IMG/VR virus record: IMGVR_UViG_3300032093_000023
DNA length: 64,000 bases
Direction: 5' to 3' (one strand)
DNA from: an uncultured virus (IMG/VR IMGVR_UViG_3300032093_000023)
Taxonomy: Duplodnaviria; Heunggongvirae; Uroviricota; Caudoviricetes
The position numbers were made by a program, and so were the translations under genes. The notes beneath the pieces are model-generated. The model was not told where the DNA came from and did no database searches. It saw only the letters and a list, made by a program, of their open reading frames with translations. Below, one piece after another: positions 13,701 through 35,912 of the stretch (position 1 is its first letter; each line of letters starts with the position of its first letter).

Positions 13701-13701
13701 A

Positions 13702-15702: not shown

Positions 15703-15738
15703 CTTATAAAGATATTAATTAATTACTGAATAACAAAA

Positions 15739-18009: not shown

Positions 18010-18014
18010 AATAA

Positions 18015-18022
18015 CAAATTTA
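18015..18022 (-). promoter_or_regulatory. Bacteroidota -7 promoter element TAAATTTG
   Basis: Matches TAnnTTTG immediately upstream of the cargo gene ATG (18009). Confidence 0.45.
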
Positions 18023-18070
18023 GTTATATTGTATTATATAATATAGTGTATTTTTTTGTAATATCCAAAT

Positions 18071-18108
18071 AAAAACCCCAGTATTTACAGTTAAGTAATA
18101 ACCAGGGT
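18071..18108 (-). terminator. Intrinsic terminator after the muzzle gene
   Basis: Minus-strand ACCCUGGU...ACUGGGGU stem with GU pairs, followed by UUUU. Confidence 0.5.
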
Positions 18109-18138
18109 CATTATATGTTTTTTGTATAATTATTTTAG

Positions 18139-21100
18139 TTATCTGTCAGATACTCTAAATATAGACTTGAGATTGTGTATTATAAATCTCACATTTGGAC
18201 TGTTGTTGTAATATAGATCAATCATCATCCATTTATCTCTTATCCTCTCTCCAAATGTAGTTTTAGTTAATTTACCTGGATCAAATAAAGAAGCTGTAGA
18301 AGGAGTCGTTGTGTTATAGTTAAACTTATTTCTAGGTACTTGTAAATTAAATCCTTGTTCAACCTTTCTCAAATTACTATCTGGAGCAATAGTTAAATTA
18401 ACCCAATCTGTATTTTGATATTGATTATAAACTCTAACCTTACTAAATGTTTCAAATGGTTTATTTACATCATCTGGATAACTAATAAAGTCTAAAGAAG
18501 GTTCTGATGGAGAACCAGGATAAACATTCAAGTCATCATTAAACTCTAAATTATCATCAATAGCTTCAGACATCCAAGTTAAGTTATCTAATACTTTAGT
18601 AAGTAAAGGTTGCTCATTAAGTAATATTTTTAATGTACTAGGATATTGTACATTATAGAAATTACCATAAGGACCATAATTGTGAAACCATACTTTATTA
18701 TCTCTATTAGTACTTAATAGATATTTATTACTATTGATATATAAATTAGGTGTAAAATTATACATACCTGTAAATGCAGCCAATACTTCAGAATAAGCTA
18801 GAGTAAGTAATTCTTGTTTTGTTACTTTCTCAAAAATGGTATCTGGCATATTTAAAAAAGTATATAAAAATTCATTATGATAATAATCATAAGTTGTTAG
18901 TATACCTTTATTAATAATAGGATTATCATGTTTTAATATATCATCATGTAATCTTTTAATTACAAAGTTTCTCTGTCCTTTAATATCAGATATAGGAGAT
19001 ACACCTTCACCGTTAAATGTGTATATTTTTTTATGTCTAGCATCAACAAATGAAATAGCTGACTGAGATCTATATACAGACCATTGATGTGAAGTACCAG
19101 TATCTATTGCTTTATAAAAATGTTTTTGAATAACTTGACTATCAGTACCATTACCTAATTTAATAGATGTACCTGCACTATCATTAATCATAGATACAGG
19201 GTTAATTAATAGTTCACCAATACCTCTTTCTTGTAAGTAATACATCTTTTCTTTAAGAGATACTAAAGCCATAATTTGACCATAATTACCTTCTACATCA
19301 TAGAAGTTATTAGTTAAATATTTACTCCATGAATCTTCTATTTCATTATCAAACTTAATTTCTGAAAAGAATACTCTATTTCTCCATACATCATTTACTT
19401 GAAAGTTTAATGGTTTAGGAAAAAATGTAACAACATTCTTTTCATTAGAATGGTATGTAGGATAACCATATTGATCTTCAGAACTATAAAGATTATTTGT
19501 AAGTTGTGTATCAATATGCTCTCCAAATCTCATGGCTTGATTATTTTGATTAGTACAAGGAAATAAATAACTTACACTAATATTGAATTTGCATGTAGCT
19601 ACTTTGCTAGGAAATCCTAATGCAACATTTCCCGGATCATCAGTAAAGGTACTCTCATACGGATAATATGCAAATTTAGGAGCATTACCTAAATTTTTAG
19701 ATATTTTCTGTAAATCCCAATAGTTCATATGAATATCTCCACCAAAACAATTAATATCTAATACTAAATTATTCTTTAATGTTTCATTAATTCTTTTTAA
19801 TGGCACAAAGCTACCACATGGAATATATATACTATTTGTTCTTGCAGCATATGTATTACCACCATATTGATTAAGATTAGGTCTATAATATAATGCTATT
19901 AGTTTATTACCTTCAGTATCGGCAGTAGTTTTTCCTATACCTGATATACTAGTGTCTAAATTATTAGCGAGACAAACAGCTACAGTTTTACATCCCCATC
20001 CAGGTACATCAGATGTACTAGTACCTGAAGGGTAGATAGCAAGACCAGGATTTCCAAAACTTTTCATGTGATTATATAAAGTATAACCACCTACTGTTAC
20101 TGAATTATTTCCACCAGCAACCATACTACCTTCTGTAATATCGTAATTAGTTAATGCTGTAGAAGCATGTACCGCCTCTTCAACATAAAATAATAAATAA
20201 TAAGGCATTTCATCAGAATCATAGGCTGTTTGAAATTTACCACAAGCTGTATTAAAACAAGGAAGAGGTCCAAATGATCCATTCCCACCAACAAACCCGT
20301 GCGGATTACCAGGAATACCATTATTTGATGGAGGTATAGTACCTCTAGTTTTTATACCACTACCAGCGGGACCATTAGTCCCTTCATTATTTAACCAGTC
20401 TTCTAAATTATCAAACCCTAATCTATATCTAGGATTAGCAACACCACTTCTAGCTCTAGACCTATTAATCGCTTTTACTCTAGACCTAATTAATAACTTA
20501 TCACCATTTCTATAATTATAACCATTTAATAGTAAGTCAAATGAATCAAAAGTCATTACTTTTTGACCTATACCCGTTTCACCATCACCTGAAGCAACTG
20601 TATAATCTGGACATAATGTTTCAATAGCTCTTTGACTAGGATTAGGCATATAAATAGTAGCTGTAGTAGTTGCACCTAAAAGTACCATAAATCCAGGTAC
20701 TGCTTTATAATGAAATCCCCCACCTAAAACAATAGGTCCATCTGAAGGTTGTCTAGGTTGAGTAATAATACCACATCCTAATATTGTTTTATCAGATTCA
20801 GTTCTTTCAACTCTAACTATTTGATAACCCCCAATAAAATCTTTAATTGTAGAAATATCTATAGTAAATTTAATATAAAGTATTTGACCATAAATATTAT
20901 CATTATATTCAAACGAATTTCTAAAATCTGTAATACCTGTAGTTTGAGCAATTGTAGAAGGATTACTATTAGTATCTCCAGTTGAAGGCATTTTAATATC
21001 ACCTATCCATTCAGTAAAGAAAGGATTACCTTGTAAATCAAAGAATTGTATTCCTAATCTATATATTTCTTCTTGTTGAAACCCTTTCATTACAGAAGTT

Positions 21101-23061
21101 ACGTATGGATTTTTAAATCCTGGAACTCCTTGAATAGGGTATGTTTGATTTTCAGAATCTGTAGTAATACTAGGAGCTACAAAGTCAAGTAAATCTTGAG
21201 GAATTGTCATACCTGAAATACCACCTGTACTTTCTGGTTGATTGCTAAATGGTGGAATAACTTCTGGATTAATTAAATAATCTCCTGAATCTCCTTTAGT
21301 CACATTTAAGTCAGAGATTTTTATAGTTTCAGTACCAAATTCATAAGATATAAATCTACCTTTACCGCCTAATACTGATGTACCAGGTTTATAGAAACAA
21401 GCATTAGATGATTCATCACCATTAGTATCATAATACTCATTAATACAATCTTCTGTTTGAGGTAAAGCTTGAGCTTGAGTAGATGTATGTTGTGTAGGTG
21501 CAATACCATTGTTAGATAAATAAATATCATCAGCACCTGATGTCTTAGCTCTAAAAGCTCTAGCATCAAATATTGCACTAATATCTGATTGTGTAGTATA
21601 TTTAACATTACCCCAGAATAATCTATTATCTTTAGTATCTACTGTTTTAGCATGTGTAAATCCTGTAGCTAAATTTAAAAACTCATCTAGTTCAATAGTA
21701 GCATAGGTTGATAAATCTGTTATTGTAATATAGTTATCTACTAATAATCCAATACTAATTTCAGGTTTAACGTAAATTAATGGTATCTCAGTTTTAGAAG
21801 TTCTACGCAAAATAACATATTCTATAGTATCGTAAGATGTATCCAGGTTAGATACTTTCCAAGTAATACTTCTTAATGAAGCTCCCCCATTTCCTTCATA
21901 TACTTTATAATTAGCATTAGATGTGTCATTAGGGTTTTCATTAATTATATGTACCATATTAGATGTTTGAGAATAATTAGTAACAGCTCCTGCTGCTTTC
22001 TTTAATCTATAACATAATTCATAAGTACCTGCAGATAAATTACCAGCACCAATATTATCAAGTAAAGGTACTTCAAAAGATACTGATGGAAATACATATA
22101 ATTGTGCGGGATTCATAGCCATCAATTGAGGCTGTGCAACATTTATATTTCTAATCTTATTGTAAAAATCTGTCCAATAAATACGTTGAATATTTGATGA
22201 TTCATATCTACCTAAAATAGCACTAGGTGCAATAGGATGATATTTAGTAAAATCTATATTATTAGAATATATTAAAGTTAATGTACCAGCTTTAGTAATA
22301 TCATCAATATTTAATTTCCATATAGCACCTCCGTGTCCAAATGTATCATTACCAGGTAATTCACCAGCTACACCAGCAGGACCATATGTCCCATCATCTG
22401 GAGCAGTTAATATATAAATATCATCTAATATAAATGTAGAACCAATTGGAATTATATCATCACTTAATACTTTTGACACATAAGGTTTTGTAGTATTTTG
22501 AGTTAATGAAGGTGATACTTTATCACTATTAATAAATTTAAATACTGCTTTTGTACCTCCTGTAGATGCGGAATAAGATATACTTATTATAGTAGGTACT
22601 GAAGCTACAGGAGAACATCCTGAATAAACTGGTTGACTATAAAATACTACATAATCATCTTCATAAGCAACACTAAATGTTTTAGTAGCTACAGTAGTCC
22701 CTGTATACTGATAACAATTAGGATAATTTTTTATTATATAATTATATAAATCAATACCTTGAGTACTATTAGAAATCTCTAAAGTACCAACAGTTGTACT
22801 ATTTATAGTAATTGTAGCTACATTTTTTGTATCATTTGGTGCTACATCTGTACCTTTAATTAATTGTAATTTATATACTGCTTGTAAATCAGGAAATGTT
22901 ATAGCACATTGGTTACCTTTAATATTAACTAGTGCCCCATTAGATCCACCAGCTTCAGTTAAAGCTCTAAAATTTAAAGCTTGTAAATATGTATCTTTAG
23001 ATTGTACCTGTTTAGATAAATCTGAAGACATACCGTTTGAAAATGTGTTAATACTTTCCAT
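18139..23061 (-). CDS. Tail muzzle/stabilisation protein (crAss gp44 / P22 gp10-like)
   Basis: Starts NTFSNGMSSDLS...YLQALNFR; contains RIYWTDFYNKIR, KDNRLFWGN, YRLGIQFFD and YDVEGNYGQI; ends ERIRDKW. 1640 aa, beta-rich. Confidence 0.85.
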   Translation of the reverse strand: MESINTFSNGMSSDLSKQVQSKDTYLQALNFRALTEAGGSNGALVNIKGNQCAITFPDLQAVYKLQLIKGTDVAPNDTKNVATITINSTTVGTLEISNSTQGIDLYNYIIKNYPNCYQYTGTTVATKTFSVAYEDDYVVFYSQPVYSGCSPVASVPTIISISYSASTGGTKAVFKFINSDKVSPSLTQNTTKPYVSKVLSDDIIPIGSTFILDDIYILTAPDDGTYGPAGVAGELPGNDTFGHGGAIWKLNIDDITKAGTLTLIYSNNIDFTKYHPIAPSAILGRYESSNIQRIYWTDFYNKIRNINVAQPQLMAMNPAQLYVFPSVSFEVPLLDNIGAGNLSAGTYELCYRLKKAAGAVTNYSQTSNMVHIINENPNDTSNANYKVYEGNGGASLRSITWKVSNLDTSYDTIEYVILRRTSKTEIPLIYVKPEISIGLLVDNYITITDLSTYATIELDEFLNLATGFTHAKTVDTKDNRLFWGNVKYTTQSDISAIFDARAFRAKTSGADDIYLSNNGIAPTQHTSTQAQALPQTEDCINEYYDTNGDESSNACFYKPGTSVLGGKGRFISYEFGTETIKISDLNVTKGDSGDYLINPEVIPPFSNQPESTGGISGMTIPQDLLDFVAPSITTDSENQTYPIQGVPGFKNPYVTSVMKGFQQEEIYRLGIQFFDLQGNPFFTEWIGDIKMPSTGDTNSNPSTIAQTTGITDFRNSFEYNDNIYGQILYIKFTIDISTIKDFIGGYQIVRVERTESDKTILGCGIITQPRQPSDGPIVLGGGFHYKAVPGFMVLLGATTTATIYMPNPSQRAIETLCPDYTVASGDGETGIGQKVMTFDSFDLLLNGYNYRNGDKLLIRSRVKAINRSRARSGVANPRYRLGFDNLEDWLNNEGTNGPAGSGIKTRGTIPPSNNGIPGNPHGFVGGNGSFGPLPCFNTACGKFQTAYDSDEMPYYLLFYVEEAVHASTALTNYDITEGSMVAGGNNSVTVGGYTLYNHMKSFGNPGLAIYPSGTSTSDVPGWGCKTVAVCLANNLDTSISGIGKTTADTEGNKLIALYYRPNLNQYGGNTYAARTNSIYIPCGSFVPLKRINETLKNNLVLDINCFGGDIHMNYWDLQKISKNLGNAPKFAYYPYESTFTDDPGNVALGFPSKVATCKFNISVSYLFPCTNQNNQAMRFGEHIDTQLTNNLYSSEDQYGYPTYHSNEKNVVTFFPKPLNFQVNDVWRNRVFFSEIKFDNEIEDSWSKYLTNNFYDVEGNYGQIMALVSLKEKMYYLQERGIGELLINPVSMINDSAGTSIKLGNGTDSQVIQKHFYKAIDTGTSHQWSVYRSQSAISFVDARHKKIYTFNGEGVSPISDIKGQRNFVIKRLHDDILKHDNPIINKGILTTYDYYHNEFLYTFLNMPDTIFEKVTKQELLTLAYSEVLAAFTGMYNFTPNLYINSNKYLLSTNRDNKVWFHNYGPYGNFYNVQYPSTLKILLNEQPLLTKVLDNLTWMSEAIDDNLEFNDDLNVYPGSPSEPSLDFISYPDDVNKPFETFSKVRVYNQYQNTDWVNLTIAPDSNLRKVEQGFNLQVPRNKFNYNTTTPSTASLFDPGKLTKTTFGERIRDKWMMIDLYYNNSPNVRFIIHNLKSIFRVSDR

Positions 23062-23062
23062 A

Positions 23063-23764
23063 TTATCTTAAGTTTCTACGTTCATGATTTTCCATATGTC
23101 TAAATCCTGAAGCATAACCGTGAGGTTTAGGGATTAGACGTACCCAAGTTTTCTGTATTCTATCGTACATTGCAGCATCAGGCATATTTGCTGAACCTCT
23201 AGCACTGTTTACATAGAAATACCAATCCTTCTCTGACATTCTAAATACAACTTCAGGAATTAATCCTTTTCTAAACTGTATCTTGTCTAACATATAAGTT
23301 ACATAGGCCTTTAAAGCTTTATCAAAATATACATCATCTGGAACTAATGGATACCCATCTTCATCTACTGGAACACCTAAATACACTATACATAATTCTC
23401 CAGTTTCTAATGAAGTATTTAAATATCCATCTGATATGTAGAAATTATAATCTGTACAACAAGTTGGCAATTGATTACATTCTGGACATTGATAGTTATT
23501 AGCTGCAGACTTAGTAGACCAAGATAATGGTTTACCATTGTGAGTAATATCTTTCATATAAACAAAACTACAAGGTAGTTCTACTCTATGATTAACTACA
23601 GATAATGTAGTAGCTATTTCTTCCATCTGAGCATATGAACCTATCATGTTTAATGCTTCAGAAATCCATTCTACGATTGATGGCTCACTAAGTTCTACAT
23701 TGATGTCTAAATCCCTATATAGACCAGCTATAATGGATTTCATTGATTTAAATCTTGTTATCAT
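23063..23764 (-). CDS. Tail ring/tubular protein (crAss-like)
   Basis: IVEWISEALNMIG...YLGVPVDEDGYPLVPD...WYFYVNSARG; adjacent to the muzzle gene. Confidence 0.75.
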   Translation of the reverse strand: MITRFKSMKSIIAGLYRDLDINVELSEPSIVEWISEALNMIGSYAQMEEIATTLSVVNHRVELPCSFVYMKDITHNGKPLSWSTKSAANNYQCPECNQLPTCCTDYNFYISDGYLNTSLETGELCIVYLGVPVDEDGYPLVPDDVYFDKALKAYVTYMLDKIQFRKGLIPEVVFRMSEKDWYFYVNSARGSANMPDAAMYDRIQKTWVRLIPKPHGYASGFRHMENHERRNLR

Positions 23765-24255
23765 AGTTGTAATCTTGCTAATTCTGAATAATAATCAAAC
23801 CCTGGACTTTGTTTTAAATGTATAGGAATAGCTCTTGAAGCTTCTCTACAAGGTTGAAATTTATAATACTTTTTACCAGTAAGTTTTAGTTTAGACTTAT
23901 CCCACTTCCATTTATATCTAAATGGTTGGTCATAATAAACTAACATACCTTGTTTCTTAGACTCACCATAATTTACTCTCCATCCTTTAATATTCTCAAT
24001 ATCAAAGTCTACATCATATTTTATGATACCTAAGTAACCTAAGTTATAAGGCATTTTAAAAGAAGCTGCGTCTTCTACTATTTTACGTTGAAGTGCTTTA
24101 TTAAAAGCTCTAACAACTTTATAGTATACTGCATAATCTACAGGTATTCTTTTATTGTTAAAAGATGCTCTACAATAATCTTTGTAAAAATCTTTAGTTG
24201 ATAAGTCTTTAGTAAATTTTCCTTTAGTTCTTTTAGTAGCCTTAAATTCTATCAT
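23761..24255 (-). CDS. HU/IHF-like DNA-binding protein (crAss-type)
   Basis: Basic; FKMPYNLGYLGI...YKWKW...YKFQPCR; conserved position between the ring genes. Confidence 0.7.
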   Translation of the reverse strand: MIEFKATKRTKGKFTKDLSTKDFYKDYCRASFNNKRIPVDYAVYYKVVRAFNKALQRKIVEDAASFKMPYNLGYLGIIKYDVDFDIENIKGWRVNYGESKKQGMLVYYDQPFRYKWKWDKSKLKLTGKKYYKFQPCREASRAIPIHLKQSPGFDYYSELARLQL

Positions 24256-24932
24256 TTCTTACCTATCTGGTTTTGAGATAATGCATCATTACTTGTATCA
24301 TGTGGCATTTGTAAGAATGGCATTACTTTAGTTTGCATAATAATATTAGTAATATCATTGGCCATCTTTAATGAACAAGGATATTTACTATCCCAAGAGA
24401 AACATGCTAATCCACCACATGTAGATAAACCTGCTAAATCTTCAGGATTCTCAAAGATAGCAAATATATTTACATGTTCCAAAAGTAATTCTGAAGTTAT
24501 GTATAAATAACCATCTCTTAAATACCATTGACTCTTCTTACTCGTATACTTATTATATCTATTATACTTAGCTTCAAATATATTAGACTTAGGTATAATA
24601 TCACCCATAGGATTAGTTACTCTAAGAATAAAATTATCTCCAGCTGTTTCAATAGTATTAGGAATTCTAACTTTAGTCTTTAAGATATAACAATCAGTAG
24701 TTATAAAACAGCATTCTGAGGCATCTACAAGTTCCAATTCCATACAGGATAAATCCTGTACCCAAGTATCTGTAATGTCCTGACGTTTAGCAATAGCTTG
24801 TGATATGAGCATAGCTCTAATCTCTGCAAACCAAAAAGCTATTTGTTTATCTGTAATTCTAAATGAATAGTTATTTTTACCAGAATCTGCGATATTACGC
24901 ACATCCGCCACTCCATGTCTCAGTGTAAACAT
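24252..24932 (-). CDS. Tail ring/tubular protein (crAss-like)
   Basis: QIAFWFAEIRAMLI...CMELELVD..ECC...WYLRDGYLY...AIFENPED...YP. Confidence 0.75.
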   Translation of the reverse strand: MFTLRHGVADVRNIADSGKNNYSFRITDKQIAFWFAEIRAMLISQAIAKRQDITDTWVQDLSCMELELVDASECCFITTDCYILKTKVRIPNTIETAGDNFILRVTNPMGDIIPKSNIFEAKYNRYNKYTSKKSQWYLRDGYLYITSELLLEHVNIFAIFENPEDLAGLSTCGGLACFSWDSKYPCSLKMANDITNIIMQTKVMPFLQMPHDTSNDALSQNQIGKK

Positions 24933-24934
24933 AA

Positions 24935-25522
24935 TTATTTCTTTCTTTTCTTAGGTGTCCAACCAAATATTCTATATTTAAATCCAATAATAGGTTGTTT
25001 ATTAAATGGATCATACCCTAACATATAGGTACTTTTATCAATTGATACTTCAGCTACTGGGGCAAACATTCTAGGACTTACTACAATACCTCCATGTATT
25101 TCATATTTATAAGGTCTATAAACTAAACTATCTATTTTAACTACTGTACAATCTTTAATCATTAAAGGTACTTTTAACTTAACGTTTAAAAGCATACCTT
25201 TTAATTCACCTTGAACCGTTACATTGGAATAAATATCATACTCTTTTTTTTTAAAAGTATCTGTGTAACTTAATAATCTATTACAGTCTACATTTGGAGA
25301 TAAAGGTTCTTTCCAAAAAGTGTCTACCCTTGATTTACTTGGATACCATCTATCAGAATAGATTGTATCTTTTGGAAAAATAGTATCTCTATAGTGCCAT
25401 TCATGCTGAATAATAGTTTCTGGTTTAGGAGTAACGGAACAAGATTTACCTACAAAGAATATTATAATCATTGCAAATACTGCTAATATAAATTCTAAAA
25501 CACTTTTCATATTATTCTCCAC
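24935..25522 (-). CDS. Putative spanin (lipoprotein-like)
   Basis: N-terminal hydrophobic segment ending GKSC, DT-rich linker and C-terminal beta strands; follows the holin. Confidence 0.55.
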   Translation of the reverse strand: MENNMKSVLEFILAVFAMIIIFFVGKSCSVTPKPETIIQHEWHYRDTIFPKDTIYSDRWYPSKSRVDTFWKEPLSPNVDCNRLLSYTDTFKKKEYDIYSNVTVQGELKGMLLNVKLKVPLMIKDCTVVKIDSLVYRPYKYEIHGGIVVSPRMFAPVAEVSIDKSTYMLGYDPFNKQPIIGFKYRIFGWTPKKRKK

Positions 25523-25709
25523 CTTTTAATTTTAAAGTAGATTTATAACCACCAGCTGCAATGAATGCAGATAATACTAATTTAGGCCATTCTTTCTTAA
25601 TATCAAATGTACTAAAATCAATGGTCATCCATGCTGATGCAATAGCCATTGCTACTCCCATAAATGTTGCTCCGTGGTCTGAAAACCAATCTAATCTTTT
25701 CTTTGTCAT
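25512..25709 (-). CDS. Putative holin
   Basis: 65 aa with two hydrophobic segments, between the endolysin and spanin candidates. Confidence 0.6.
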   Translation of the reverse strand: MTKKRLDWFSDHGATFMGVAMAIASAWMTIDFSTFDIKKEWPKLVLSAFIAAGGYKSTLKLKGGE

Positions 25710-25712
25710 AAT

Positions 25713-26261
25713 TTATAAAGGTTCTTTAAGTAACGTATAACTAAAATCTTTTAATCCAGATGCTTTACATCTTTCTATTAAATAATTAAAATCTTTAGGA
25801 TTGTTTAATACTTGACAACCTGCTGACCATTTATCTATAATACTAGATATAACTGAGGGATTGGCTCTATGAATATTAATACCAAATAATCCAGTATCTA
25901 CAGCAGCAGTTTCCTCAGCAAAGTTATCTTTATCTGAATCTCTGTAAACAGTAACTGGTTTACGTTGACATAATGCTAAGTATTTACCTTGATGAAGATC
26001 TAACTTCCAAGTATCTAAATATTGATTAGGTTTAAGTAATGCTGCACCTTTAGGATTTAACAAGTTTTTTAACCAATGTAATCCTGGATTAGTAGTTCCT
26101 GTAAACCAAGTAATTCTATCTGCTTCAAATAATCCTATTAAGTCATCAAACTTATTAGGGGCATCAGCTTTAGATCTAATTCCTATAATGTGAAAAGGTA
26201 ACCATTTGTAACCTAATCTATTGAACTCTGTTTTAAGTTCTTGTGTTGTAAGTTGTTTCAT
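25713..26261 (-). CDS. Endolysin (L,D-peptidase/YkuD-like fold)
   Basis: GINIHRA...WSAGCQV His/Cys motif plus TTNPG; sits in the lysis cassette. Confidence 0.7.
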   Translation of the reverse strand: MKQLTTQELKTEFNRLGYKWLPFHIIGIRSKADAPNKFDDLIGLFEADRITWFTGTTNPGLHWLKNLLNPKGAALLKPNQYLDTWKLDLHQGKYLALCQRKPVTVYRDSDKDNFAEETAAVDTGLFGINIHRANPSVISSIIDKWSAGCQVLNNPKDFNYLIERCKASGLKDFSYTLLKEPL

Positions 26262-26602
26262 TAATCAAATTTTTTAGCTAAATACGCTTTCATTATAATA
26301 TACGCTGAAAATCCATCAAATGAATAAATACCTTTATCTCTTAAAGCATTAAAATCATTTAATGAACCTTTCCAATAATCATATTCACCAATACCATCTA
26401 AGTTAACATCATTACTTAATGTAATTAATATTACATCTTTAGTTAAAATATTAGTACCAATAAATTCATTGGTATCTTTATTATAATAATTTAAATTACA
26501 ATCTAACAAAATAGTTTTATTAAGCTTATTATCAACAAATTTAATAAATTCTATCTCTCTTTTAAGTCCAGTTTTAGGACAAATATCTTCTTTAATTATC
26601 AT
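26261..26602 (-). CDS. Hypothetical protein (possible fibre chaperone)
   Basis: 113 aa, coupled by TAATG overlaps on both sides, directly after a fibre-like gene. Confidence 0.55.
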   Translation of the reverse strand: MIIKEDICPKTGLKREIEFIKFVDNKLNKTILLDCNLNYYNKDTNEFIGTNILTKDVILITLSNDVNLDGIGEYDYWKGSLNDFNALRDKGIYSFDGFSAYIIMKAYLAKKFD

Positions 26603-28074
26603 TACTCGTGATATAAGTTAGGTGAAATTACAAACTGTAATACTTGTGAAGCTGTTGCCGCACCTGATAATATCTTACCCATCACACCAACAAATTCACC
26701 TGGATTAACAATAATAGGCGCTTCAAAATCAAATTGTACAGATGTACCTTGTTGACCTACAACAGCGGATACAGGAATACTAACAACACCAATAGGTTGT
26801 GGTCTTCTAATTTTAGTTGTATTATTAACAAAAGAACCTGCCTCAGTAGTTGCTAAAGAAGCTGCTGTTGAACCCCATGCTAACGCCAACGCAATAGTTG
26901 TAGGTACAGTTGCAGAGTTAGCTGCACCGGCATTTACTATATCAACTCTAATACCTCTAATGTGCATTACTCTACCAGTTTGATTGACACCTCCTAATGG
27001 ATTTTGATAACTAGATATAATAACATCAGTTGCAGATGTAGCAGCAGCATTCATTTGAAATATACCACCTAAGAAAGCTCCTAGTGCAGCAGTAGTATTA
27101 GTTGCAGCAGCAGCAGTTGGTAAAGTTGTATTAGCCCATTGTATTTGTTGCGCTCCATTTGTAAATGTACCACCATCTAATGTTTGTAATCCTAATCCTG
27201 AACTAGCTAATTGACCAGCCCATGTTTTATTAGTTGCAATATCCATTAAAGTTACAGTAACATCTCCAACTTTAAATATCATATTTGGAGATGAACCAAC
27301 TGTACCAGAATTATATTTTTGTATAAATACTGGTAAAGATGTAGATAAAAAAGCTTGTCCTTGACCAACAGGTATCATTTGCTCCCCATATAATACATCA
27401 TCAATCCAATATTCTATTTCTCGTTCTCCTACAACTATACTATATTTTGTATTTGTATTTAAAGGAAAATTAGTTATAGTTGTTTCTAATGCTTGTTTAG
27501 TGGTAGTTCCAGAGTTATATCTAATACATCCATATAAGCCAGCACTTGTAAATTCAAACCATACACCATCCACAGGTTCAGCAGCTCCAGTAGCTACACC
27601 TAATCCTGCTTGGAAAACTTCATTAGCAGTTGGATAAGCTGTAAACGCCCCTGTAATTTCAGCGCAAACTGGCGCAGTTCCTATTAATGGAAAATACCTC
27701 CATGTTTGTAAATACGCAAAGTTACCTGAAACTGTTGATGTACCAGCAGCATTTACATTTAAGAAACCTGCTGATTGTGTCATTGTCATAGTAGTAAATG
27801 AATGCTTCCATACACCTGTATTTTGAGTAGTAGCGTTAAATGTAGCACTAAACAAAACTGTATCCATACCTACACGACTTCTAAAATCTTGTGATACTTC
27901 TTGAGATTTTAGATAAGCTTCACCTGTTTTAGAACCAGGGTCATTCTCACTAAAAGCTCTTACGGCACCTACATTACCTGGATTTGTAGCTACATCTGTT
28001 TCTGTTACTACTTTAGCAGCATTAAAACTATTTACTTCTTGTTCGTATATTGAACCTATTATTCTTACGCTCAT
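26602..28074 (-). CDS. Beta-rich spike/receptor-binding-like protein
   Basis: Thr/Ala/Gly-rich beta strands and a lectin-like segment (DGVWFEF...YSIVVG...YWIDD). Confidence 0.55.
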   Translation of the reverse strand: MSVRIIGSIYEQEVNSFNAAKVVTETDVATNPGNVGAVRAFSENDPGSKTGEAYLKSQEVSQDFRSRVGMDTVLFSATFNATTQNTGVWKHSFTTMTMTQSAGFLNVNAAGTSTVSGNFAYLQTWRYFPLIGTAPVCAEITGAFTAYPTANEVFQAGLGVATGAAEPVDGVWFEFTSAGLYGCIRYNSGTTTKQALETTITNFPLNTNTKYSIVVGEREIEYWIDDVLYGEQMIPVGQGQAFLSTSLPVFIQKYNSGTVGSSPNMIFKVGDVTVTLMDIATNKTWAGQLASSGLGLQTLDGGTFTNGAQQIQWANTTLPTAAAATNTTAALGAFLGGIFQMNAAATSATDVIISSYQNPLGGVNQTGRVMHIRGIRVDIVNAGAANSATVPTTIALALAWGSTAASLATTEAGSFVNNTTKIRRPQPIGVVSIPVSAVVGQQGTSVQFDFEAPIIVNPGEFVGVMGKILSGAATASQVLQFVISPNLYHE

Positions 28075-28850
28075 GATATTATTTCTTGATAATTTATTTT
28101 ATATCGACCCCACGTTCTATTATTAGCAACTGCTATAATATTAAAGCTTACGTTTGGGATTATGTTATATGCGGATGCTGTAATGTTTTCTAAATAAGCG
28201 TCTTCTCCTGTATGGTCAACACCATCGTTTTCAACAAAACATACTATTTTAGAAGATGCCGTTACCCACAATGCTGGTATTGTAGTAATAACCACATCAT
28301 TTTCTGATAATACGCCAAATTTACCAAAATTAATATTTATAGTTCCTGACTGTAAATCTAATTTGGTAATAATACTAGACTGAGTTTCATCTCCTGTATT
28401 AGAACCACTTAAAGTAGTAATGCCTAATTTAGCTTTTATGGTAGCGTTTGTTTCGTCACCAGTATTTATACCACTTGTGTTTCCTAATACAGTTAATTCG
28501 GCATCGGTAACAAATCTTTTATTTGTACTATCTGTAATATTTGCAGTTGTCGAAGTATCTAAATTAACTACATTTGATAACCCCACATCACTTTTAGTCA
28601 ATCCTAAAGCAGTTTTTAAAGCGTTATAGGCTTTTAAAAACCATCCACCACCATCGGTAGCTAAAACTCCACTTCCAGCCGAATTAATTGCAGCTATTGT
28701 TGTTAAATCAGAATCTAATGGTTGCTTATTTGCTAAACTTGGAACTGTTGGATTTGGGTACGTACCAGATAAATCACCACCAGCAGGTCCAGTAGGACTG
28801 CCACCGCCACCGCCTCCACTACCACTTGACTGAAAACCAAAATCTTCCAT
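28071..28850 (-). CDS. Fibre/spike protein with N-terminal poly-Gly hinge
   Basis: GSGGGGGGS followed by fibre modules AGGDLSGTYPNP, KQPLDSDLT, DVGLSNV and SGxNTGDE repeats. Confidence 0.65.
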   Translation of the reverse strand: MEDFGFQSSGSGGGGGGSPTGPAGGDLSGTYPNPTVPSLANKQPLDSDLTTIAAINSAGSGVLATDGGGWFLKAYNALKTALGLTKSDVGLSNVVNLDTSTTANITDSTNKRFVTDAELTVLGNTSGINTGDETNATIKAKLGITTLSGSNTGDETQSSIITKLDLQSGTININFGKFGVLSENDVVITTIPALWVTASSKIVCFVENDGVDHTGEDAYLENITASAYNIIPNVSFNIIAVANNRTWGRYKINYQEIIS

Positions 28851-28902
28851 TTATTTTTTTAATTAATTTACAAATATATTAATTTATTATATCACTTTTA
28901 AC

Positions 28903-29166
28903 TTATCTTGCGATAATCTGTATTGTTCCTGTTGTTGTTAATGTTATTCCATCAAGTATTGTTTGCCAATCTCCAATAGTTACAGCGGTTCCTATAATTA
29001 AATTTAATGGTTGAGATTGCAAAGTCCCTGCTTGTAAATTTCCTGAATAAGTACCTGTACCTGATGTTAATAATACAGATAGTTTCCTTAATCCAAAAGA
29101 TTCATCAATGGTTAAAGAACCATTAATTACGTTATAAGTCCATGTTTTTGCTACTATTGTTGACAT
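28903..29166 (-). CDS. Small all-beta protein (penton/vertex candidate)
   Basis: 87 aa with an alternating hydrophobic beta pattern, flanked by spike genes. Function inferred only. Confidence 0.5.
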   Translation of the reverse strand: MSTIVAKTWTYNVINGSLTIDESFGLRKLSVLLTSGTGTYSGNLQAGTLQSQPLNLIIGTAVTIGDWQTILDGITLTTTGTIQIIAR

Positions 29167-29198
29167 TTTTTATTATTTATTTTAAAGGATATTTTTGA

Positions 29199-30734
29199 CT
29201 ATTTACTTATAACTAATGTATATGATATAGCAAAAAACCATCTCAAGTTACCTGATATACCTACGCATTCAATTTGAAGACAATCATTTACATTATCTGC
29301 TGTTACAGTAACACTCGTTGCAGCTAAACTCACGTCTCCGTTTGTTGAAGTCATCGTGAATGCTCCAACTAAAGATGTTATACCTGATATATTCTTTATT
29401 AATCCTCCTCCTGAAAATTCTTTAGCGTCACCGCTTAAAGGATTTACCAAAACACATTCTAATTTAATTTTATAAACAGTGTTATTAGGTATAAAAATAT
29501 CTGACGCATCTTGTATATTCAATATGAAAGGATTGGCGTTGGTGGAATATGCAGAGGCACTCATAATTCCATATTGACCTGAAGTTCCATTATGAGACCT
29601 ACACCATTCACCAAAATGTTGTGAAATAGAGAATATTCCACCAGCGTGACTTGCCATACTATAAGCCTTACTCTCAATACCTTCTGCGTGTGAACCGCCG
29701 CCACCTGCAAATGTTTCTTTTCCTTCCGCATGACTTGAAAATCCTGTTGCTTTTGATAAAGCACCCTCAGAGTGAGTTCCGTTTCCGCTATCTGAAACTA
29801 AAATTGCATTTACATTAGCTGTATTTAAGTTGTTATAATTAGCTACATAATCGCCACTATTGATTTTAGGGTCAACTACATTTGAGTTTATTTGTGATAA
29901 GGTAATCGTAAAGTTTGGTGCTAAATAAGATTGAGCTATAATATTATAAATTTTATTGCTTTCAGCGTTGCCTAATACGACATACGAGAATGTTCCAAAC
30001 TCACTAGATAAATCACCTATTCCACTAATTGTAACTACACCATTAATAACGCTTGTAGTCAAAAAGCCTTTCCAACCTGCTCTTGTATTTAGTCCTTCAG
30101 AGTGTGTATAACTAGCTATAGCGATACTATCACTTCCTTCTGCGTGACTCGCTTCGCCACCAGCAGTTGTATTCAAACCTTCTGCGTGACTTACTTCACC
30201 GCTAGATATTGTGTTATTACCTTCAGCGTGTGAATAACTACCACTAGCTATCGTATCACCACCTTCTGCGCGACTCGCTTCGCCACTAGCAGTTGTATTC
30301 AAACCTTCTGCTACAGCAAAATCGCCTGTCGCATCAAGTGCGCTATTGTTGTTTGCTTTAATAGAGTAAAGACCACTTCCTGTTGTCCAATTTTGTGAAC
30401 CACTAAATGATTCAGGCTCTCTAACTACAAACCATTCATTTTGATTAGCAATAGAGCATTTAGCCGTACCGCCATTTTGAGTAATTGGAATGCTACTTGT
30501 ACTATTTACAATATTATCAGCAGCTACAATAATAATGTTATTTACGGAAGCATTATTAGAAATATCATTAATGATAAATCCTTTAGCTGTTCCGTAATAA
30601 CCACTACTTAAAATATTAGGCAATATTATAGTAACTGCATTTACCGAAGTATCTACATTTATTGTTCCATCATTATTATCTACAACGTACTCTGTTACGC
30701 CTGTAATGTATTTTATATTTCCTATTACTTCCAC
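29199..30734 (-). CDS. Spike/adhesin with YadA-head-like SHAEG repeats
   Basis: About 10 copies of a 14-aa repeat (ASGxxSHAEGxxT). N-terminal domain shared with 35913-37184. GTG start. Confidence 0.75.
   Translation of the reverse strand: MEVIGNIKYITGVTEYVVDNNDGTINVDTSVNAVTIILPNILSSGYYGTAKGFIINDISNNASVNNIIIVAADNIVNSTSSIPITQNGGTAKCSIANQNEWFVVREPESFSGSQNWTTGSGLYSIKANNNSALDATGDFAVAEGLNTTASGEASRAEGGDTIASGSYSHAEGNNTISSGEVSHAEGLNTTAGGEASHAEGSDSIAIASYTHSEGLNTRAGWKGFLTTSVINGVVTISGIGDLSSEFGTFSYVVLGNAESNKIYNIIAQSYLAPNFTITLSQINSNVVDPKINSGDYVANYNNLNTANVNAILVSDSGNGTHSEGALSKATGFSSHAEGKETFAGGGGSHAEGIESKAYSMASHAGGIFSISQHFGEWCRSHNGTSGQYGIMSASAYSTNANPFILNIQDASDIFIPNNTVYKIKLECVLVNPLSGDAKEFSGGGLIKNISGITSLVGAFTMTSTNGDVSLAATSVTVTADNVNDCLQIECVGISGNLRWFFAISYTLVISK
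30080..30312. repeat. 42-bp-period coding tandem repeat (SHAEG)
   Basis: ccttctgcg recurs; 30136-30186 is nearly identical to 30262-30312, 126 bp apart. Confidence 0.8.
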
Positions 30735-30768
30735 TTTATTTTTTAATTTTTAAAGCAGAAAAGTTGTA

Positions 30769-31017
30769 TTATTTTTCTTTACCAACTATCTCTGCTACTG
30801 TTATTTCTCTAACGTGAACAGGCTTTTTATCAATGTATTGAAAAATATCACATCTAAAATTAAAATCTCCGTCTATTGGCTTAATCATAATGAAAAAATC
30901 ACCAAAAGGCTTATTTAATTCTGTTGCTACTTTTTCTAAGGTATCTTGAATCGTATCTTTTGTGATACTTTCTTTATCCATACCCCCCATTAAACCACCT
31001 AATAAATCTCCTAACAT
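30769..31017 (-). CDS. Hypothetical protein
   Basis: 82-aa ORF in the operon with an A-rich leader. Confidence 0.6.
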   Translation of the reverse strand: MLGDLLGGLMGGMDKESITKDTIQDTLEKVATELNKPFGDFFIMIKPIDGDFNFRCDIFQYIDKKPVHVREITVAEIVGKEK

Positions 31018-31051
31018 ACTATTTTTTTTTAATTGTTTATAATTTGCTAAG

Positions 31052-31582
31052 TTAGCATTTATTTTCGTTACTTGTACTTTTATTTTCAGATTTATTTGAC
31101 ATTAAATCTTTAATACTTGTAACGTACTCGTAAGGAATGTTAAACGTAAATATATATAATTTAACTTTTAATTTGCATTTAACTTTTAGTATAACTTTTT
31201 CTGGACTAAATACAAAGTTTTGAGCCAACGTTCCCACAGTTCCTAATAATTTACTAGGATTAAACAATACGTTAACTGATAATTCAGAAATTGATTTAGG
31301 TGATATAACTTGTAATTTAGGATTAGATACTTGAGCTATTTCCTTGTCATTTAAGTATGCTACATAATCTTGAGAAATAATTTCAATTTTTAAATCGCTA
31401 TTATTTTTAAAGTTAAGAAACAAATTAAAATCTGCTTTATTTAAACTTAGACTATTTATTTTAACGTTTTTAATAGATATACAATAGTTCATTAATTTTT
31501 TGTACTGTAAATATATGGCAGCACCAGTAATTGTTACTAATGCTATTACTCCTGCTATATAGTGTTTTTTTTCTAATTTCAT
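31052..31582 (-). CDS. LEA_2/WHy-like domain membrane protein
   Basis: N-terminal TM, then beta strands with FKNNSDLKIEI...YLNDKEIA...ISPKSISEL. Confidence 0.65.
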   Translation of the reverse strand: MKLEKKHYIAGVIALVTITGAAIYLQYKKLMNYCISIKNVKINSLSLNKADFNLFLNFKNNSDLKIEIISQDYVAYLNDKEIAQVSNPKLQVISPKSISELSVNVLFNPSKLLGTVGTLAQNFVFSPEKVILKVKCKLKVKLYIFTFNIPYEYVTSIKDLMSNKSENKSTSNENKC

Positions 31583-31583
31583 G

Positions 31584-31694
31584 TTACTGATTGTATTTTT
31601 TTTTTAGTAATTTATATGAATAGTATTGTAAAGCAATTCCACCAATTAACACTAATGTCATGCAAACAAGTAATTGTTTTTCTGATTTATCCAT
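31584..31694 (-). CDS. 36-aa single-TM peptide
   Basis: Hand-translated MDKSEKQLLVCMTLVLIGGIALQYYSYKLLKKKYNQ; fills the intergenic gap with a TAATG overlap. Confidence 0.7.
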   Translation of the reverse strand: MDKSEKQLLVCMTLVLIGGIALQYYSYKLLKKKYNQ

Positions 31695-32158
31695 TATTTT
31701 GCCTTTTTATTTCTTAAAATTAAAAATGTAACAATTCCAGCTATTAATAACACTCCTGCTCCAATACCAACATACAAACCTGTTTTAGATTTAGGTTTTT
31801 CTGTTTGAGAGCCTGATTTTAAAGCTTCTGCCATTGCTAAATCTGCTGGGTCTGTTTTACCTAATTGACCTGCTGCAATTTTTTGAGAGTCTGCTTGTGT
31901 CATTTTAGCCGAAGTTCTTTGTTCTCTAGCAACTGCTTTTGATGCAGCTTGAACATCACGTCTGTTTTGACGCTGTTTTTGAACTGCTCTTCTATGCTTA
32001 AAATATCTTTTTAATCCTCCTGCTTCTGAAAATTCAGCATCAAAAGAACTAGAGCTTTCGTTTTCTGCATCAAAAAAAGAGCTTGGGTCTTCTTCAATTA
32101 CGTTGTATTGAGTTGTTGGGTTTTGGTTACTTCTTTGAGTTATTAAATCTACTTTCAT
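31694..32158 (-). CDS. Tail-anchored membrane protein with acidic leader and basic segment
   Basis: SSFDAEFSEAGG, then an Arg/Lys-rich helix; C-terminal TM followed by RNKKAK. Confidence 0.75.
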   Translation of the reverse strand: MKVDLITQRSNQNPTTQYNVIEEDPSSFFDAENESSSSFDAEFSEAGGLKRYFKHRRAVQKQRQNRRDVQAASKAVAREQRTSAKMTQADSQKIAAGQLGKTDPADLAMAEALKSGSQTEKPKSKTGLYVGIGAGVLLIAGIVTFLILRNKKAK

Positions 32159-32159
32159 T

Positions 32160-32867
32160 TTATTTGTTTTTAATTATTAGTTTATATCCGACATAAGCTG
32201 TTAATGCTATTGCTATTGTTAATGCAGCTACCTTATAGGGATTTTTTTTTACTACCTCTTTGGCTGATATTGCTGCATTTTCTATTGACTTTCCTATTAA
32301 TGTATAAGAATATGTTTTTAAAGCATCTAACCTATTTAACCAACCCTTTGTATATACAGGTTGATTTAATCCTATAAGAAATTGTTTTTTTTGTTCGGTT
32401 AATTCATCAAATAATTGCTTCTCTCCTAATTTATCTGTCAAGTTATTTAAGTGAACATAAAGACCTTTTAAATCTGAAATATTCCAATCAATTCCTTTTG
32501 ATTTTAAATAATTTTTAATTCTATTTCTCCATCCGTAACCGCTTCCCCATTGCCAAGAAAACATTAAATTAGCTACTGCTTGACTTTTTACGTTATCTAA
32601 GTTTATTATATCCCAATAACCGTTTTTAGCAATTTTTAACCAAATATCTTCTGGCATTGTTAAAAAGTTAGTAGCATTATCTTGATAACCTAACTTTGGG
32701 GCTAATGATTTAAAAGCTGCATAAGTAACACCTTTATTTGTATGCCATCCTTTAACCCCTTTATATTCATAAGGGCTTGGATTTTTAGATGCGCTATCTG
32801 TTGTAGCTCTACTTAATCCACCCTCCCATTTGTAAGTAAATGGTATTATTTCTTTTATGTTTGCCAT
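32160..32867 (-). CDS. GH108-family lysozyme with C-terminal membrane anchor
   Basis: KWEGG, TNKGVT, GYW, WGSG and KGWLNR motifs; C-terminal TM VAALTIAIALTAYVGY. Confidence 0.8.
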   Translation of the reverse strand: MANIKEIIPFTYKWEGGLSRATTDSASKNPSPYEYKGVKGWHTNKGVTYAAFKSLAPKLGYQDNATNFLTMPEDIWLKIAKNGYWDIINLDNVKSQAVANLMFSWQWGSGYGWRNRIKNYLKSKGIDWNISDLKGLYVHLNNLTDKLGEKQLFDELTEQKKQFLIGLNQPVYTKGWLNRLDALKTYSYTLIGKSIENAAISAKEVVKKNPYKVAALTIAIALTAYVGYKLIIKNK

Positions 32868-33553
32868 TACGCTAAAATATTTAAGTTACTACTAAGTGTT
32901 TTATAAAATTTACCTTGTGAGCCGCTAAACGTAACCCAATAACCGCTTGTTGTTGGTGTAATTTTAGCTACTTTACCTAAAGCCATGATTTTTGTTACAG
33001 GTGCAATTTTTGTAAATACATTATCAGCTACATTTCCATCAAATATATCTGCTCCTGCATATTTAGAATAAACTACTTTACCAATAGGATTACCATTTGA
33101 TTTTATATAAGCGTTTAAATCTTGCATTTTAACGTTAACTACTTTCTCATATTCTAAACCGTATTTATTCCATGCCAAAGTTGTATTTTTACCGTAAATT
33201 CCATCTTCTACTAAAGAAGCACCTTTTATTTTATTAGCCCATTTTTGAAAGCTTAATGTATCTTTTGGTTGGCTTTTAATAACGTGTAATGGATTTGTAT
33301 TTGTAGAAATAGTTTGTTCCACTTTTGGCGAACTTAATCCTTTTGATGGGTCAGAAGAACTTGGAGTATTTGAATTTTCAGAAACAGACTCTCCACTAGG
33401 TAAGCCTAATTCTTTTTTCTTTTTATCATGCAAATACCAAATATAAATACCGATACCTGCTGCTACTAATAATGATACACCAATGATTAAACCTTTTTTA
33501 GATTTAGGTGATACAATTACTCGCTTATAATTTTTTATTACTGTTACTGCCAT
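32867..33553 (-). CDS. Membrane protein with peptidoglycan-binding-like domain
   Basis: N-terminal TM, Ser/Pro linker and FQKWAN...LVEDGIYGKNTTLAW. Confidence 0.65.
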   Translation of the reverse strand: MAVTVIKNYKRVIVSPKSKKGLIIGVSLLVAAGIGIYIWYLHDKKKKELGLPSGESVSENSNTPSSSDPSKGLSSPKVEQTISTNTNPLHVIKSQPKDTLSFQKWANKIKGASLVEDGIYGKNTTLAWNKYGLEYEKVVNVKMQDLNAYIKSNGNPIGKVVYSKYAGADIFDGNVADNVFTKIAPVTKIMALGKVAKITPTTSGYWVTFSGSQGKFYKTLSSNLNILA

Positions 33554-33557
33554 GTCG

Positions 33558-33767
33558 TTATTTTACTAATGATGCTGTTGGTATTCCTTTTTTTGCTTTT
33601 AAATATGATTCTAAATTAGCTCCACTTAAACTACCAACCACCATAAATGGAATGACAGTTAATTGTTTTTCGTATCCTAATTTTTTAGCTAATAAATATC
33701 CTGCGGCAATACCTAAAGCTGTGCCGATTAAATTATTCTTATATGTTGTTGTTAATTTATCTATCAT
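33558..33767 (-). CDS. Small two-TM glycine-zipper protein
   Basis: LIGTALGIAAG...VVGSLSG. Confidence 0.7.
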   Translation of the reverse strand: MIDKLTTTYKNNLIGTALGIAAGYLLAKKLGYEKQLTVIPFMVVGSLSGANLESYLKAKKGIPTASLVK

Positions 33768-33768
33768 T

Positions 33769-34392
33769 TTATTTAGTTTTTAATTGTTTTTCTAATGTGT
33801 TCCAAATTTTAGCTTGTTCAGATATTACTACGTCATAATTTGGTAAATCTTGCAAAAGTCCCATTACGGCATTCCATCCATTACCTGCTCCTTTATACAA
33901 AACTTCCTCTCCTTCAATATCTTTCCAAAGGTCTTTTTTGTACAAAGATTTATATATAGAATTAACTAATATAAAAGCACCATTCGTTCCTATTCTTCTG
34001 AAATTTCTATCAAACTTAATTTTATCAGTTCCAACTCTATTTATAGCAGAGTACAATTCATTTGCAATATTTACAGCTATATCAATAGCGGATTTACGTT
34101 GTGTAGCATTTCCTAAATTGTACCATTTACCATCTAGGGCAACTAATGAAACTTTGTATTGTTTTAAACTATCTAAATTTAAACTACTAGCGTTTTTAGC
34201 AACATCTACATTTATATTAGATAATTCATTTTGCGCTCCAACTGTATTTTCTTTTACCAATCCATTAATATATTCTAATATTAAAGCACTATTACGCTTA
34301 TTAACGTGTCGTTTATATATTAAATAACCAATACCACCAGCGGCTACCAATAAACTTACTCCTAAAACTATTTTTTTATTTTTTGTTGTCAT
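33769..34392 (-). CDS. Membrane-anchored annexin-repeat-like protein
   Basis: N-terminal TM; ANELYSAINRVGTD...IYKSLYKKDLWKDIEGE resembles the annexin repeat. Confidence 0.6.
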   Translation of the reverse strand: MTTKNKKIVLGVSLLVAAGGIGYLIYKRHVNKRNSALILEYINGLVKENTVGAQNELSNINVDVAKNASSLNLDSLKQYKVSLVALDGKWYNLGNATQRKSAIDIAVNIANELYSAINRVGTDKIKFDRNFRRIGTNGAFILVNSIYKSLYKKDLWKDIEGEEVLYKGAGNGWNAVMGLLQDLPNYDVVISEQAKIWNTLEKQLKTK

Positions 34393-34393
34393 T

Positions 34394-34840: not shown

Positions 34841-34852
34841 ATTATTTTTTTT

Positions 34853-35911: not shown

Positions 35912-35912
35912 T

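Follow-up and report, generated by a model that had tools for sequence, protein, structure and literature searches.

Phages of the Crassvirales carry a virion-packaged giant protein with an RNA polymerase domain, phages in general exchange tail-fiber and receptor-binding modules (mosaicism), and short-read metagenome assemblies are known to contain inter-genome chimeric contigs joined through a shared repeat. The DNA analyzed here, hereafter the window, is the whole stretch of 64,000 nucleotides (nt) of the IMG/VR record IMGVR_UViG_3300032093_000023 from an uncultured virus, in which a left half with crAss-type tail and cargo genes and a right half with a membrane-protein module meet inside the gene of a 490-amino-acid (aa) lectin-like protein. 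We consider the window to be probably a misassembly, a chimera of two co-occurring viruses through a gene that both possess, and regarded as a hybrid virus it is most likely not a real feature. The left half resembles the Crassvirales (crAss-like phages, among them crAss001 and those of Flavobacterium and Cellulophaga) in its muzzle, ring 1, and ring 2 proteins, which stand in crAss order and are followed by very large cargo-type proteins, and its complete relatives of ~90 kb also have the crAss capsid protein, portal, and TerL; it differs in that the whole lineage is strongly CpG-depleted and the window is devoid of head and packaging genes, and in its distance from the phages deposited so far. 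With repeat-joined chimeric contigs the window shares separate parents, an identical joining segment longer than a short read (585 bp), a change in depth and composition, and intact reading frames, whereas its repeat is a domain block, apparently exchanged not long ago, from a lectin-like tail gene instead of a transposon or rRNA gene, and the same join is found in a second contig (L001). The window resembles phage mosaicism in a carbohydrate-binding block that is identical in three backgrounds, has sharp edges, and adopts a predicted fold near those of receptor-binding modules; unlike typical mosaicism, the exchange would be one between a crAss-like phage and a virus without recognizable tailed-phage morphogenesis genes, and the family involved is unusually conserved.

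The compositional change along the window, which the initial annotation had described by eye and proposed to verify with sliding profiles, proved to be real. In a profile of the CpG observed/expected ratio (o/e) in 2-kb windows over the 64,000 nt, positions 1-28044 were found to hold 117 CpG (4.2/kb, o/e 0.21) and positions 28045-64000 to hold 581 (16.2/kb, o/e 0.80), a split with p = 2e-51 when tested binomially against the share that C and G content predicts, while G+C was equal on both sides of 28044/28045 (0.287 vs 0.288; ~0.29 for the whole window). The 2-kb ranges are disjoint (0.05-0.34 on the left vs 0.54-0.94 on the right), and tetranucleotide correlations of 0.81-0.90 within the left and 0.67-0.81 within the right fall to 0.25-0.53 across the halves, a separation into two classes that persists after CG-containing tetramers are dropped. 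The profile thus splits in two and is not flat. The position of the rise had to be revised: the 26.3-26.6 kb given earlier partly reflects the G+C content of the 490-aa gene, since positions 26602-28044 have 11.1 CpG/kb yet an o/e of only 0.34, whereas positions 28045-28359 reach 1.21, which places the step by o/e at 28045. The higher G+C of the same gene (26602-28074) also explains why fitting a change point with two rates gave a pair of nearly equal optima, one at 26.6 kb and one at 27.64 kb. The CpG and tetranucleotide step is most likely the boundary between two genomes.

The left parent could be followed beyond the join in other contigs. L002, an IMG/VR contig of 28,691 bp, has no mismatch to the window over 17264-28044, differs from it by ~22% over 28045-28359, and is unrelated from 28360 on, where its sequence belongs to a further 9.7 kb collinear with the crAss-type genome G002 and comprising the fiber gene, ring 3/4, and, as last gene, a major capsid protein at 98% aa identity. 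G002 (90,131 bp) and G004 (90,852 bp), both complete genomes with direct terminal repeats, are among the IMG/VR contigs that harbor relatives of ring protein 2 and the 490-aa protein, and align with window positions 1-28044 at 66-90% nt identity in blastn pieces; upstream of its 490-aa gene, G002 encodes TerL (phrog_6681), portal (phrog_6547), Crass_capsid (5.8e-114), ring 3/4, and a fiber gene. In the opposite direction, G001 (49.6 kb) is 100% identical to window positions 8360-16965, where it ends. As had been noticed from the sequence, the fiber, capsid, portal, and terminase genes expected upstream of the crAss tail genes are replaced in the window, and a search for the crAss capsid, portal, and terminase families with Pfam and PHROG, which the initial annotation had recommended, retrieved none of them among the 59 open reading frames (ORFs) scanned. 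By what is known of the Crassvirales, a tail and cargo module without capsid, portal, and terminase is not a viable genome. Because L002, identical over 10.8 kb, continues through the fiber and ring 3/4 genes to the capsid gene, the same crAss strain would carry the missing genes elsewhere, and by these comparisons the left half is evidently an ordinary crAss-like phage whose normal continuation exists on another contig.

The right half has relatives of its own, here called right type. An alignment-based scan recovered 14 related IMG/VR contigs of 28-84 kb, all linear, with a common order of the core genes in 13 of them, the 14th (L055) being truncated after the gene of a 246-aa protein. Where contigs were followed further, the order runs on with membrane and lysis genes, a large fiber, and a gene for an 87-aa protein, and on the other side of the core the relatives have the replication-side genes found in the window at 47093, 61483, and 63188. 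No DNA homology longer than 136 bp was detected between the right half and crAss-type genomes, and the longest DNA match of positions 28360-48359 to two complete crAss-type genomes spans 54 bp. A diverged crAss lineage was considered as an identity for the right half and rejected, as the crAss capsid gene was found in none of the nine right-type relatives searched (the positive control G002 has one). Judged from homology and gene order, the right half is evidently a coherent segment of a different virus family, one that is widespread in aquatic habitats and has no relative among deposited sequences.

The two genomes, the CpG-poor crAss-like phage of ~90 kb and the unrelated CpG-normal virus, both carry a fiber gene followed by the 490-aa lectin-like gene, and are identical in the latter over at least 585 bp. 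The left-type contigs (L002 and record 20 of the public run X8) match the window exactly as far as 28044 and depart from it from 28045 onward; in run X11, a right-type contig that ends at 27460 is identical to the window from there to beyond 35500. A third background, L086, a crAss strain whose upstream region is that of L002, matches the window exactly over 27211-28044 alone and shows 65-87% identity to the left of 27211. The shared block encodes approximately residues 10-205 of the 490-aa protein (10-288 in L086), and a 30-mer from inside it occurs in three IMG/VR contigs, L001, L002, and L003/L086. Under the reading as a misassembly, the assembler would have come into this block along the crAss path and gone out along that of the other virus, and, since the block sits within homologous genes that share a frame, the frames would stay open and coupled across the join with no visible seam. 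The translational coupling reported earlier was indeed recovered, with ORF overlaps of 4 nt at 28071-28074 (ATGA, minus strand) and of 1 nt at 26602 and 26261. The earlier proposal of a misassembly through a shared fiber gene hence stands as to the misassembly and shifts as to the gene, the block lying in the lectin-like gene just downstream of the fiber gene. It was also observed that the lectin-domain block is identical and sharply edged in an L002-type crAss strain, an L086-type crAss strain, and the right-type virus. From this sequence identity we infer that the block may have been exchanged very recently as a host-recognition module and that the two viruses may share a host.

In public runs, the halves occur independently of each other. 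Part of the stretch 25500-31500 was found in 20 runs, 11 with at least half of its words and nine with 0.33-0.36, and seven runs contain 0.96-0.99 of the words of the junction stretch. Four runs (X7, X8, X11, and X13) were examined by contig depth, given as per-contig means from Logan contigs, and in three of these (X8, X11, and X13) the comparison of coverage suggested by the initial annotation revealed very different depths for the two halves. The left half has 41-45x and the right half 2.5-7x in X8, where the major contig of 8079 bp shows 42 differences to the window from 28045 on and enters other sequence at 28242. In X13 the left half, at 32x, has the same loose end at 28242, and the right half reaches 0.3-1.4x. 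The reverse holds in X11, in which the right-type contig follows the window at 25.6x with no difference, while the left half stays at or below 0.7x in most bins and rises to 6x at 20.2-22.2 kb only through matches of ~20-26 nt; the share of 0.71 of the words of 25500-31500 in this run fits the portion 27460-31500. In X7, left contigs of ~11-17x and right contigs of ~7x accompany a block covered at depth 30, and the right-type contig starts at 28015, that is 28045 minus 30, as expected for a k=31 branch at 28045. Among the pieces listed for the four runs, none bridges from below 27460 to above 28242. Uncovered parts of the stretch in a run were counted as absence only as far as the word shares bear this out. 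The left parent is thus seen with its own continuation in L002 and in the X8 and X13 contigs that diverge at 28045/28242, and the right parent is seen in X11 without the left half. A misassembly is favored because both parents exist separately, share an identical block, and differ in contig depth.

Several observations weigh against this conclusion. L001, a whole IMG/VR contig of 14,215 bp, matches the window over 17024-31238, is identical from 17163 on, and carries the same join, a second occurrence that weighs only as far as its sample is independent of that of the window. No contig shows how the right-type genome itself runs on to the left of 27460, because in IMG/VR a 30-mer from 28421-28450 retrieved L001's contig only; the same 30-mer found nothing among metagenome contigs, a set in which near-identical records may be lacking. 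The depths are contig means and not read coverage; the halves lie within about two-fold depth of each other in X7; and the X11 contig is exactly 15,000 nt long and may have been cut, although the word share of that run argues otherwise. Finally, recombination at the block edges is seen among natural genomes, with L086 identical over its limited interval only, which makes a real crossover mechanistically plausible.

The first alternative is a natural recombinant or cointegrate, formed by homologous recombination in the lectin-domain block while both viruses were in the same cell, which we hold to be unlikely. Such recombinant molecules might be real, perhaps transient or defective, and abundant enough in some samples to assemble. 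The join of L001, the exact divergence of L002 at 28045 beside the block-edge recombination of L086, the recent exchange and shared host implied by an identical block, and the seven runs with nearly all junction words speak for it; yet words of both flanks in one run do not prove linkage, as each flank also exists alone, the halves differ ~10-fold or more in contig depth in X8, X13, and X11, and the bridging piece is missing from those listed for the four runs. Moreover, no crAss capsid, portal, or terminase lies within the 64 kb, and, at ~90 kb plus at least 50 kb, a cointegrate would be larger than the genomes of the lineage (~90 kb). The more specific proposition that the join is physical, so that a crAss-like phage and an uncharacterized virus with a shared host recombine through the lectin block and were assembled twice (in the window and in L001), appears rather unlikely to us; if true, the join would document directly an illegitimate exchange of modules between two widely different virus lineages. 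Far less probable is a true hybrid virus, with crAss tail and cargo genes, the module and replication genes of the other family, and head genes outside the window. The reading frames are intact and coupled across the join, and the window is only part of its contig, so that capsid genes could lie beyond it; however, the left side continues into the crAss-type G001, the right side keeps to the gene order of the other family over 36 kb, and the crAss capsid is absent from the nine relatives, as are long DNA matches to the two complete crAss-type genomes. The halves also keep the composition of their own families, which would make the fusion very recent, and were found alone in other runs. A single genome with region-specific CpG avoidance, such as restriction avoidance in first-entering DNA or late-gene codon usage, is hardly credible: the CpG depletion extends strongly and uniformly over 28 kb and almost every gene of the window, on either side, lies on the minus strand, but complete relatives are CpG-poor over their full length, replication genes included, the step matches to the base the position where identity to L002 ends, CG-free tetramers separate the halves as well, and neither family has an internal step in 2-kb windows, which contradicts this idea through the uniform profiles of G002 (0.07-0.53 in 45 windows), G007 (0.35-0.79), and G010 (0.81-1.22).

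If the window is a chimera, as we consider probable, then annotation, host call, completeness, and taxonomy built on the contig as one genome are wrong, including a description as a crAss-like phage that lacks capsid genes and has a membrane module, and L001 shares the error. The real biology is threefold: the exchange of a lectin-domain block between unrelated viruses, the uncharacterized right-type family, and the genome-wide CpG depletion of the crAss lineage. The identical carbohydrate-binding block in two crAss strains and an unrelated virus points to a very recent exchange in host recognition and to a shared host, and the right half brings to notice a widespread aquatic virus family without deposited relative. 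The features on which these statements rest are collected in Table 1.

Table 1. Coordinates of the segments and genes discussed, in window positions
Feature	Position	Strand	Basis
crAss-like phage segment, CpG-poor (o/e 0.21), with cargo and tail genes	1..28044	-	Contig identity, composition
Giant protein of 3730 aa, in the position of crAss cargo/virion proteins	2508..13700	-	Homology to 3779-aa ORF of G002
crAss muzzle protein	18139..23061	-	PF25731 (crAss_MUZ) E 1e-126, also PF25729
crAss tail ring protein 1 (Ring_1)	23063..23764	-	PF24228 E 2.7e-44
crAss tail ring protein 2 (Ring_2)	24252..24932	-	PF25702 E 9.3e-38
Lysin-like protein of the left half	25713..26261	-	phrog_3000 E 3e-31; phrog_33083 endolysin E 4e-13
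490-aa protein with concanavalin-A-like/GH16-like domain (residues ~65-280); contains the junction	26602..28074	-	AlphaFold model, structural matches
585-bp block shared without difference by both backgrounds, where the assembly path probably crossed	27460..28044	.	Contig comparisons
259-aa fiber-like ORF	28071..28850	-	C-terminal ~96 aa homologous to crAss-type fiber (~78% nt); N-terminal part right-type only
Segment of an unrelated, uncharacterized virus family (right type), CpG o/e ~0.8	28360..64000	-	Collinearity with 14 contigs
87-aa gene conserved in the right-type family, just before the variable fiber slot	28903..29166	-	Homologs
GH108 lysin with C-terminal hydrophobic tail	32160..32867	-	PF05838 E 1.2e-8; phrog_315 endolysin
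Conserved core of the membrane-protein module	35913..44286	-	Synteny among related loci
Right-type replication and polyvalent-protein genes	47093..63814	-	Pfam, PHROG matches

The crAss-type tail genes recognized in the initial annotation are present between 18139 and 24932 and could be named by Pfam as muzzle, ring 1, and ring 2, and the statement that each half has a lytic enzyme of its own was borne out by endolysin matches on either side. The muzzle protein found 182 GenBank phage records by tblastn, all below 60% identity, with those listed at ~26%, mostly from Flavobacterium, uncultured crAss, and Bacteroides phages, and ring protein 2 has 16 related IMG/VR loci. The giant protein matched no Pfam or PHROG family and aligns in pieces with its G002 counterpart at 69-74% aa identity. 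CpG depletion was observed throughout this freshwater crAss-like lineage, with 1-kb o/e values mostly at 0-0.5 across related loci and low values over the 90 kb of G002; host methylation, restriction pressure, and host composition are possible causes. Within the ORF at 15739-18009, positions 16926-17291 constitute a variable hotspot at which other assemblies are interrupted: G001 stops at 16965, L001 begins at 17024, and L002 at 17059, the X8 contigs meet at 17070-17099, and the X7 contigs stop at 16926 and restart at 17291. The interval 17035-17263 holds all 13 mismatches of L001 and all 22 left-side mismatches of L002.

The membrane-protein module claimed for the right half was corroborated by a crude scan, in which nine right-half ORFs have a hydrophobic segment. 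Its core comprises two proteins, of 246 aa and 370 aa, whose beta-sandwich domains are paralogous (BLASTP E 5e-10 between them), a 262-aa HExxH protein with 55-62% aa identity across relatives, tail-anchored membrane proteins, and a spike whose N-terminus is conserved. For the 246-aa protein (43546-44286), 468 homologs were found in databases, of which the 120 listed are at 55-96% identity; the structural model of this protein has a mean predicted local distance difference test (pLDDT) score of 54 and only generic jelly-roll matches (best Z 6.3), and a Foldseek search of this low-confidence model against BFVD gave poor matches only (TM ≤0.31, root-mean-square deviation (rmsd) 8-34), which were disregarded. 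The 262-aa protein had no match in 50,697 GenBank phage records, a protein-pattern scan of IMG/VR detected no relative of the 370-aa protein, megablast of 18-36 kb against GenBank phages found nothing, and the pattern of a 511-aa fiber protein retrieved L001's contig only in IMG/VR and nothing among metagenome contigs. The GH108 lysin has a homolog in L082 at 42% aa identity. Short acidic motifs (SFDAE, SFDG(K), SFNGE, and NADG(D/E/A)) were seen to recur in six membrane-module proteins between 31694 and 44286 (the ORFs at 31694, 39947, 40879, 41577, 42960, and 43546), often ahead of a C-terminal membrane anchor. They number nine on the right and zero on the left, a count that describes and does not test, the pattern having been defined after it was seen. 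On their recurrence, these motifs may be a shared targeting or binding signal.

Matches in the replication and polyvalent-protein region include LPD1, DUF5661 together with a sliding-clamp domain, DnaA_C HTH, HTH_3, and a resolvase-like protein, and the genes at 47093-47635, 61483-61737, and 63188-63814 have homologs in the same order in G007 and G010. Additionally, G007 encodes DnaB, an AAA ATPase, polyvalent-protein domains, RusA, MazG, a thymidylate-synthase-like protein, glycosyltransferases, and lysins. Head and packaging genes were sought at several levels, with results that are bounded by the nature of the right-type contigs as linear fragments of 27-89% CheckV completeness: Terminase_6N was found in none of four relatives; TerL, portal, and HK97-fold capsid were found neither in the right 36 kb of the window (Pfam, PHROG) nor in the 15 larger G010 ORFs scanned; and G007 (51 kb) yielded no recognizable head or tail gene among 56 ORFs of at least 100 aa searched by Pfam, the larger ones also against PHROGs. 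An FtsK/HerA-type packaging ATPase was likewise not detected by Pfam, the sole AAA match being an AAA_5 in G007 and G010 that is MoxR-like by our reading, and no double jelly-roll protein was found in the family. The membrane-containing jelly-roll viruses (PRD1-like, Helvetiavirae) offer a resemblance only. Like them, the right half has one operon with many small membrane proteins, two paralogous beta-sandwich proteins, spikes, and a lysin; it differs in its 28-84-kb contigs with DnaB, polyvalent, and thymidylate-synthase-like genes, and the jelly-roll match is generic. The automatic taxon label of the clusters related to the right half is Uroviricota.

At its left edge, the right-type sequence of the window ends in a variable slot. 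Homologs of the 87-aa gene occur at 29-49% aa identity in G007, L080, L081, and L083, and in relatives one to three variable genes follow it before the operon ends; in the window, this slot is occupied by the 259-aa fiber gene and the 490-aa gene. Several right-type contigs (G007:1-400, G010:1-500, and L047) were observed to end 11-16 kb downstream of the 246-aa gene, and G007 ends 158 bp past its 87-aa homolog. This common end point is where the right-type sequence of the window stops, and it may be either a recurrent assembly break at variable fiber genes or a real genome end. In CpG-poor relatives, blastn homology stops at 28354-28402, inside the 259-aa ORF, whose residues 166-258 are matched at 74% by a 350-aa ORF of G002, the G002 homolog being assigned to the tail protein family phrog_25379.

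The AlphaFold model of the 490-aa protein has a mean pLDDT of 58.8, with domain blocks at 70-90 and residues 140-230 at ~72-90. Its best structural match is 3i4i_A (Z 18.2, rmsd 3.0 over 183 residues) among 246 chains at Z of at least 8, and phage receptor-binding modules (phage J-1 Dit CBM2 and TM4 gp23) match it at Z 15.0-15.7. The GH16 catalytic motif is E-x-D-x(-x)-E. A regular-expression search for E[ILVM]D[IVAFLM][VILMF]?E did not find it in the 490-aa protein, which has only EREIE at residue 217, and neither a Pfam GH16 match, nor a match in a sequence search of the PDB, nor a hit by tblastn against GenBank phages was obtained. A binding role appears more likely than a hydrolase role for the modeled domain, because both the GH16 catalytic motif and a Pfam GH16 match are lacking. 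The family is widespread in tailed phages, usually adjoining a fiber-like gene, with 22 related loci in IMG/VR (56-100% aa identity) on contigs whose G+C spans 0.30-0.64, and its members are still 61-70% identical in contigs of G+C 0.41-0.64. Within that set, homologs were observed between the portal and the major head protein (L007:6624-8102), after a head-closure gene and a fiber-like gene (L016:9926-11389), and after a collagen-like fiber (L010:6833-8299), with a further member at L005:8452-9918. Such high conservation combined with mobility is unusual for a tail-associated gene.

A further homolog of the 490-aa protein (L022:10001-11416) was noticed in G006, a phage genome of 276,095 bp with direct terminal repeats (loci L066-L079), in a clade of large (jumbo) phages, with further loci L089-L092, in which TAG is apparently recoded. 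All five in-frame TAG codons of this homolog stand on invariant Trp columns, and the genome has 359 in-frame TAG codons in 76 of its 195 ORFs of at least 150 codons. TGG makes up 0.44% of codons in the 52 ORFs with two or more TAG vs 0.92% in the 119 TAG-free ORFs, and Gln, Tyr, Leu, and Ser are not depleted in the TAG-rich ORFs. In a DNA comparison of TerL among four related phages, the codons opposite TAG were TGG (eight times), TAT (eight), TTT (two), and seven further codons with one occurrence apiece; CAA and CAG did not occur. In database homologs, Q alternates with W in the TAG columns, which suggests that pipelines may have translated TAG as Gln (a code-15 mistranslation). The preprint of Borges et al. 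(2021) reports only TAG-to-Gln and TGA-to-Trp as observed, and a literature phrase search for TAG or UAG read as tryptophan, TAG as Tyr not being among the phrases searched, found none. The single tRNA(CUA) of G006 has a long variable arm and U73, and ARAGORN detected no tRNA-Trp in this genome. From codon usage and alignment columns, the clade seems to read TAG as an aromatic residue and not as Gln, with Trp favored because of the invariant Trp columns together with the TGG depletion, and Tyr because of the shape of the tRNA(CUA).

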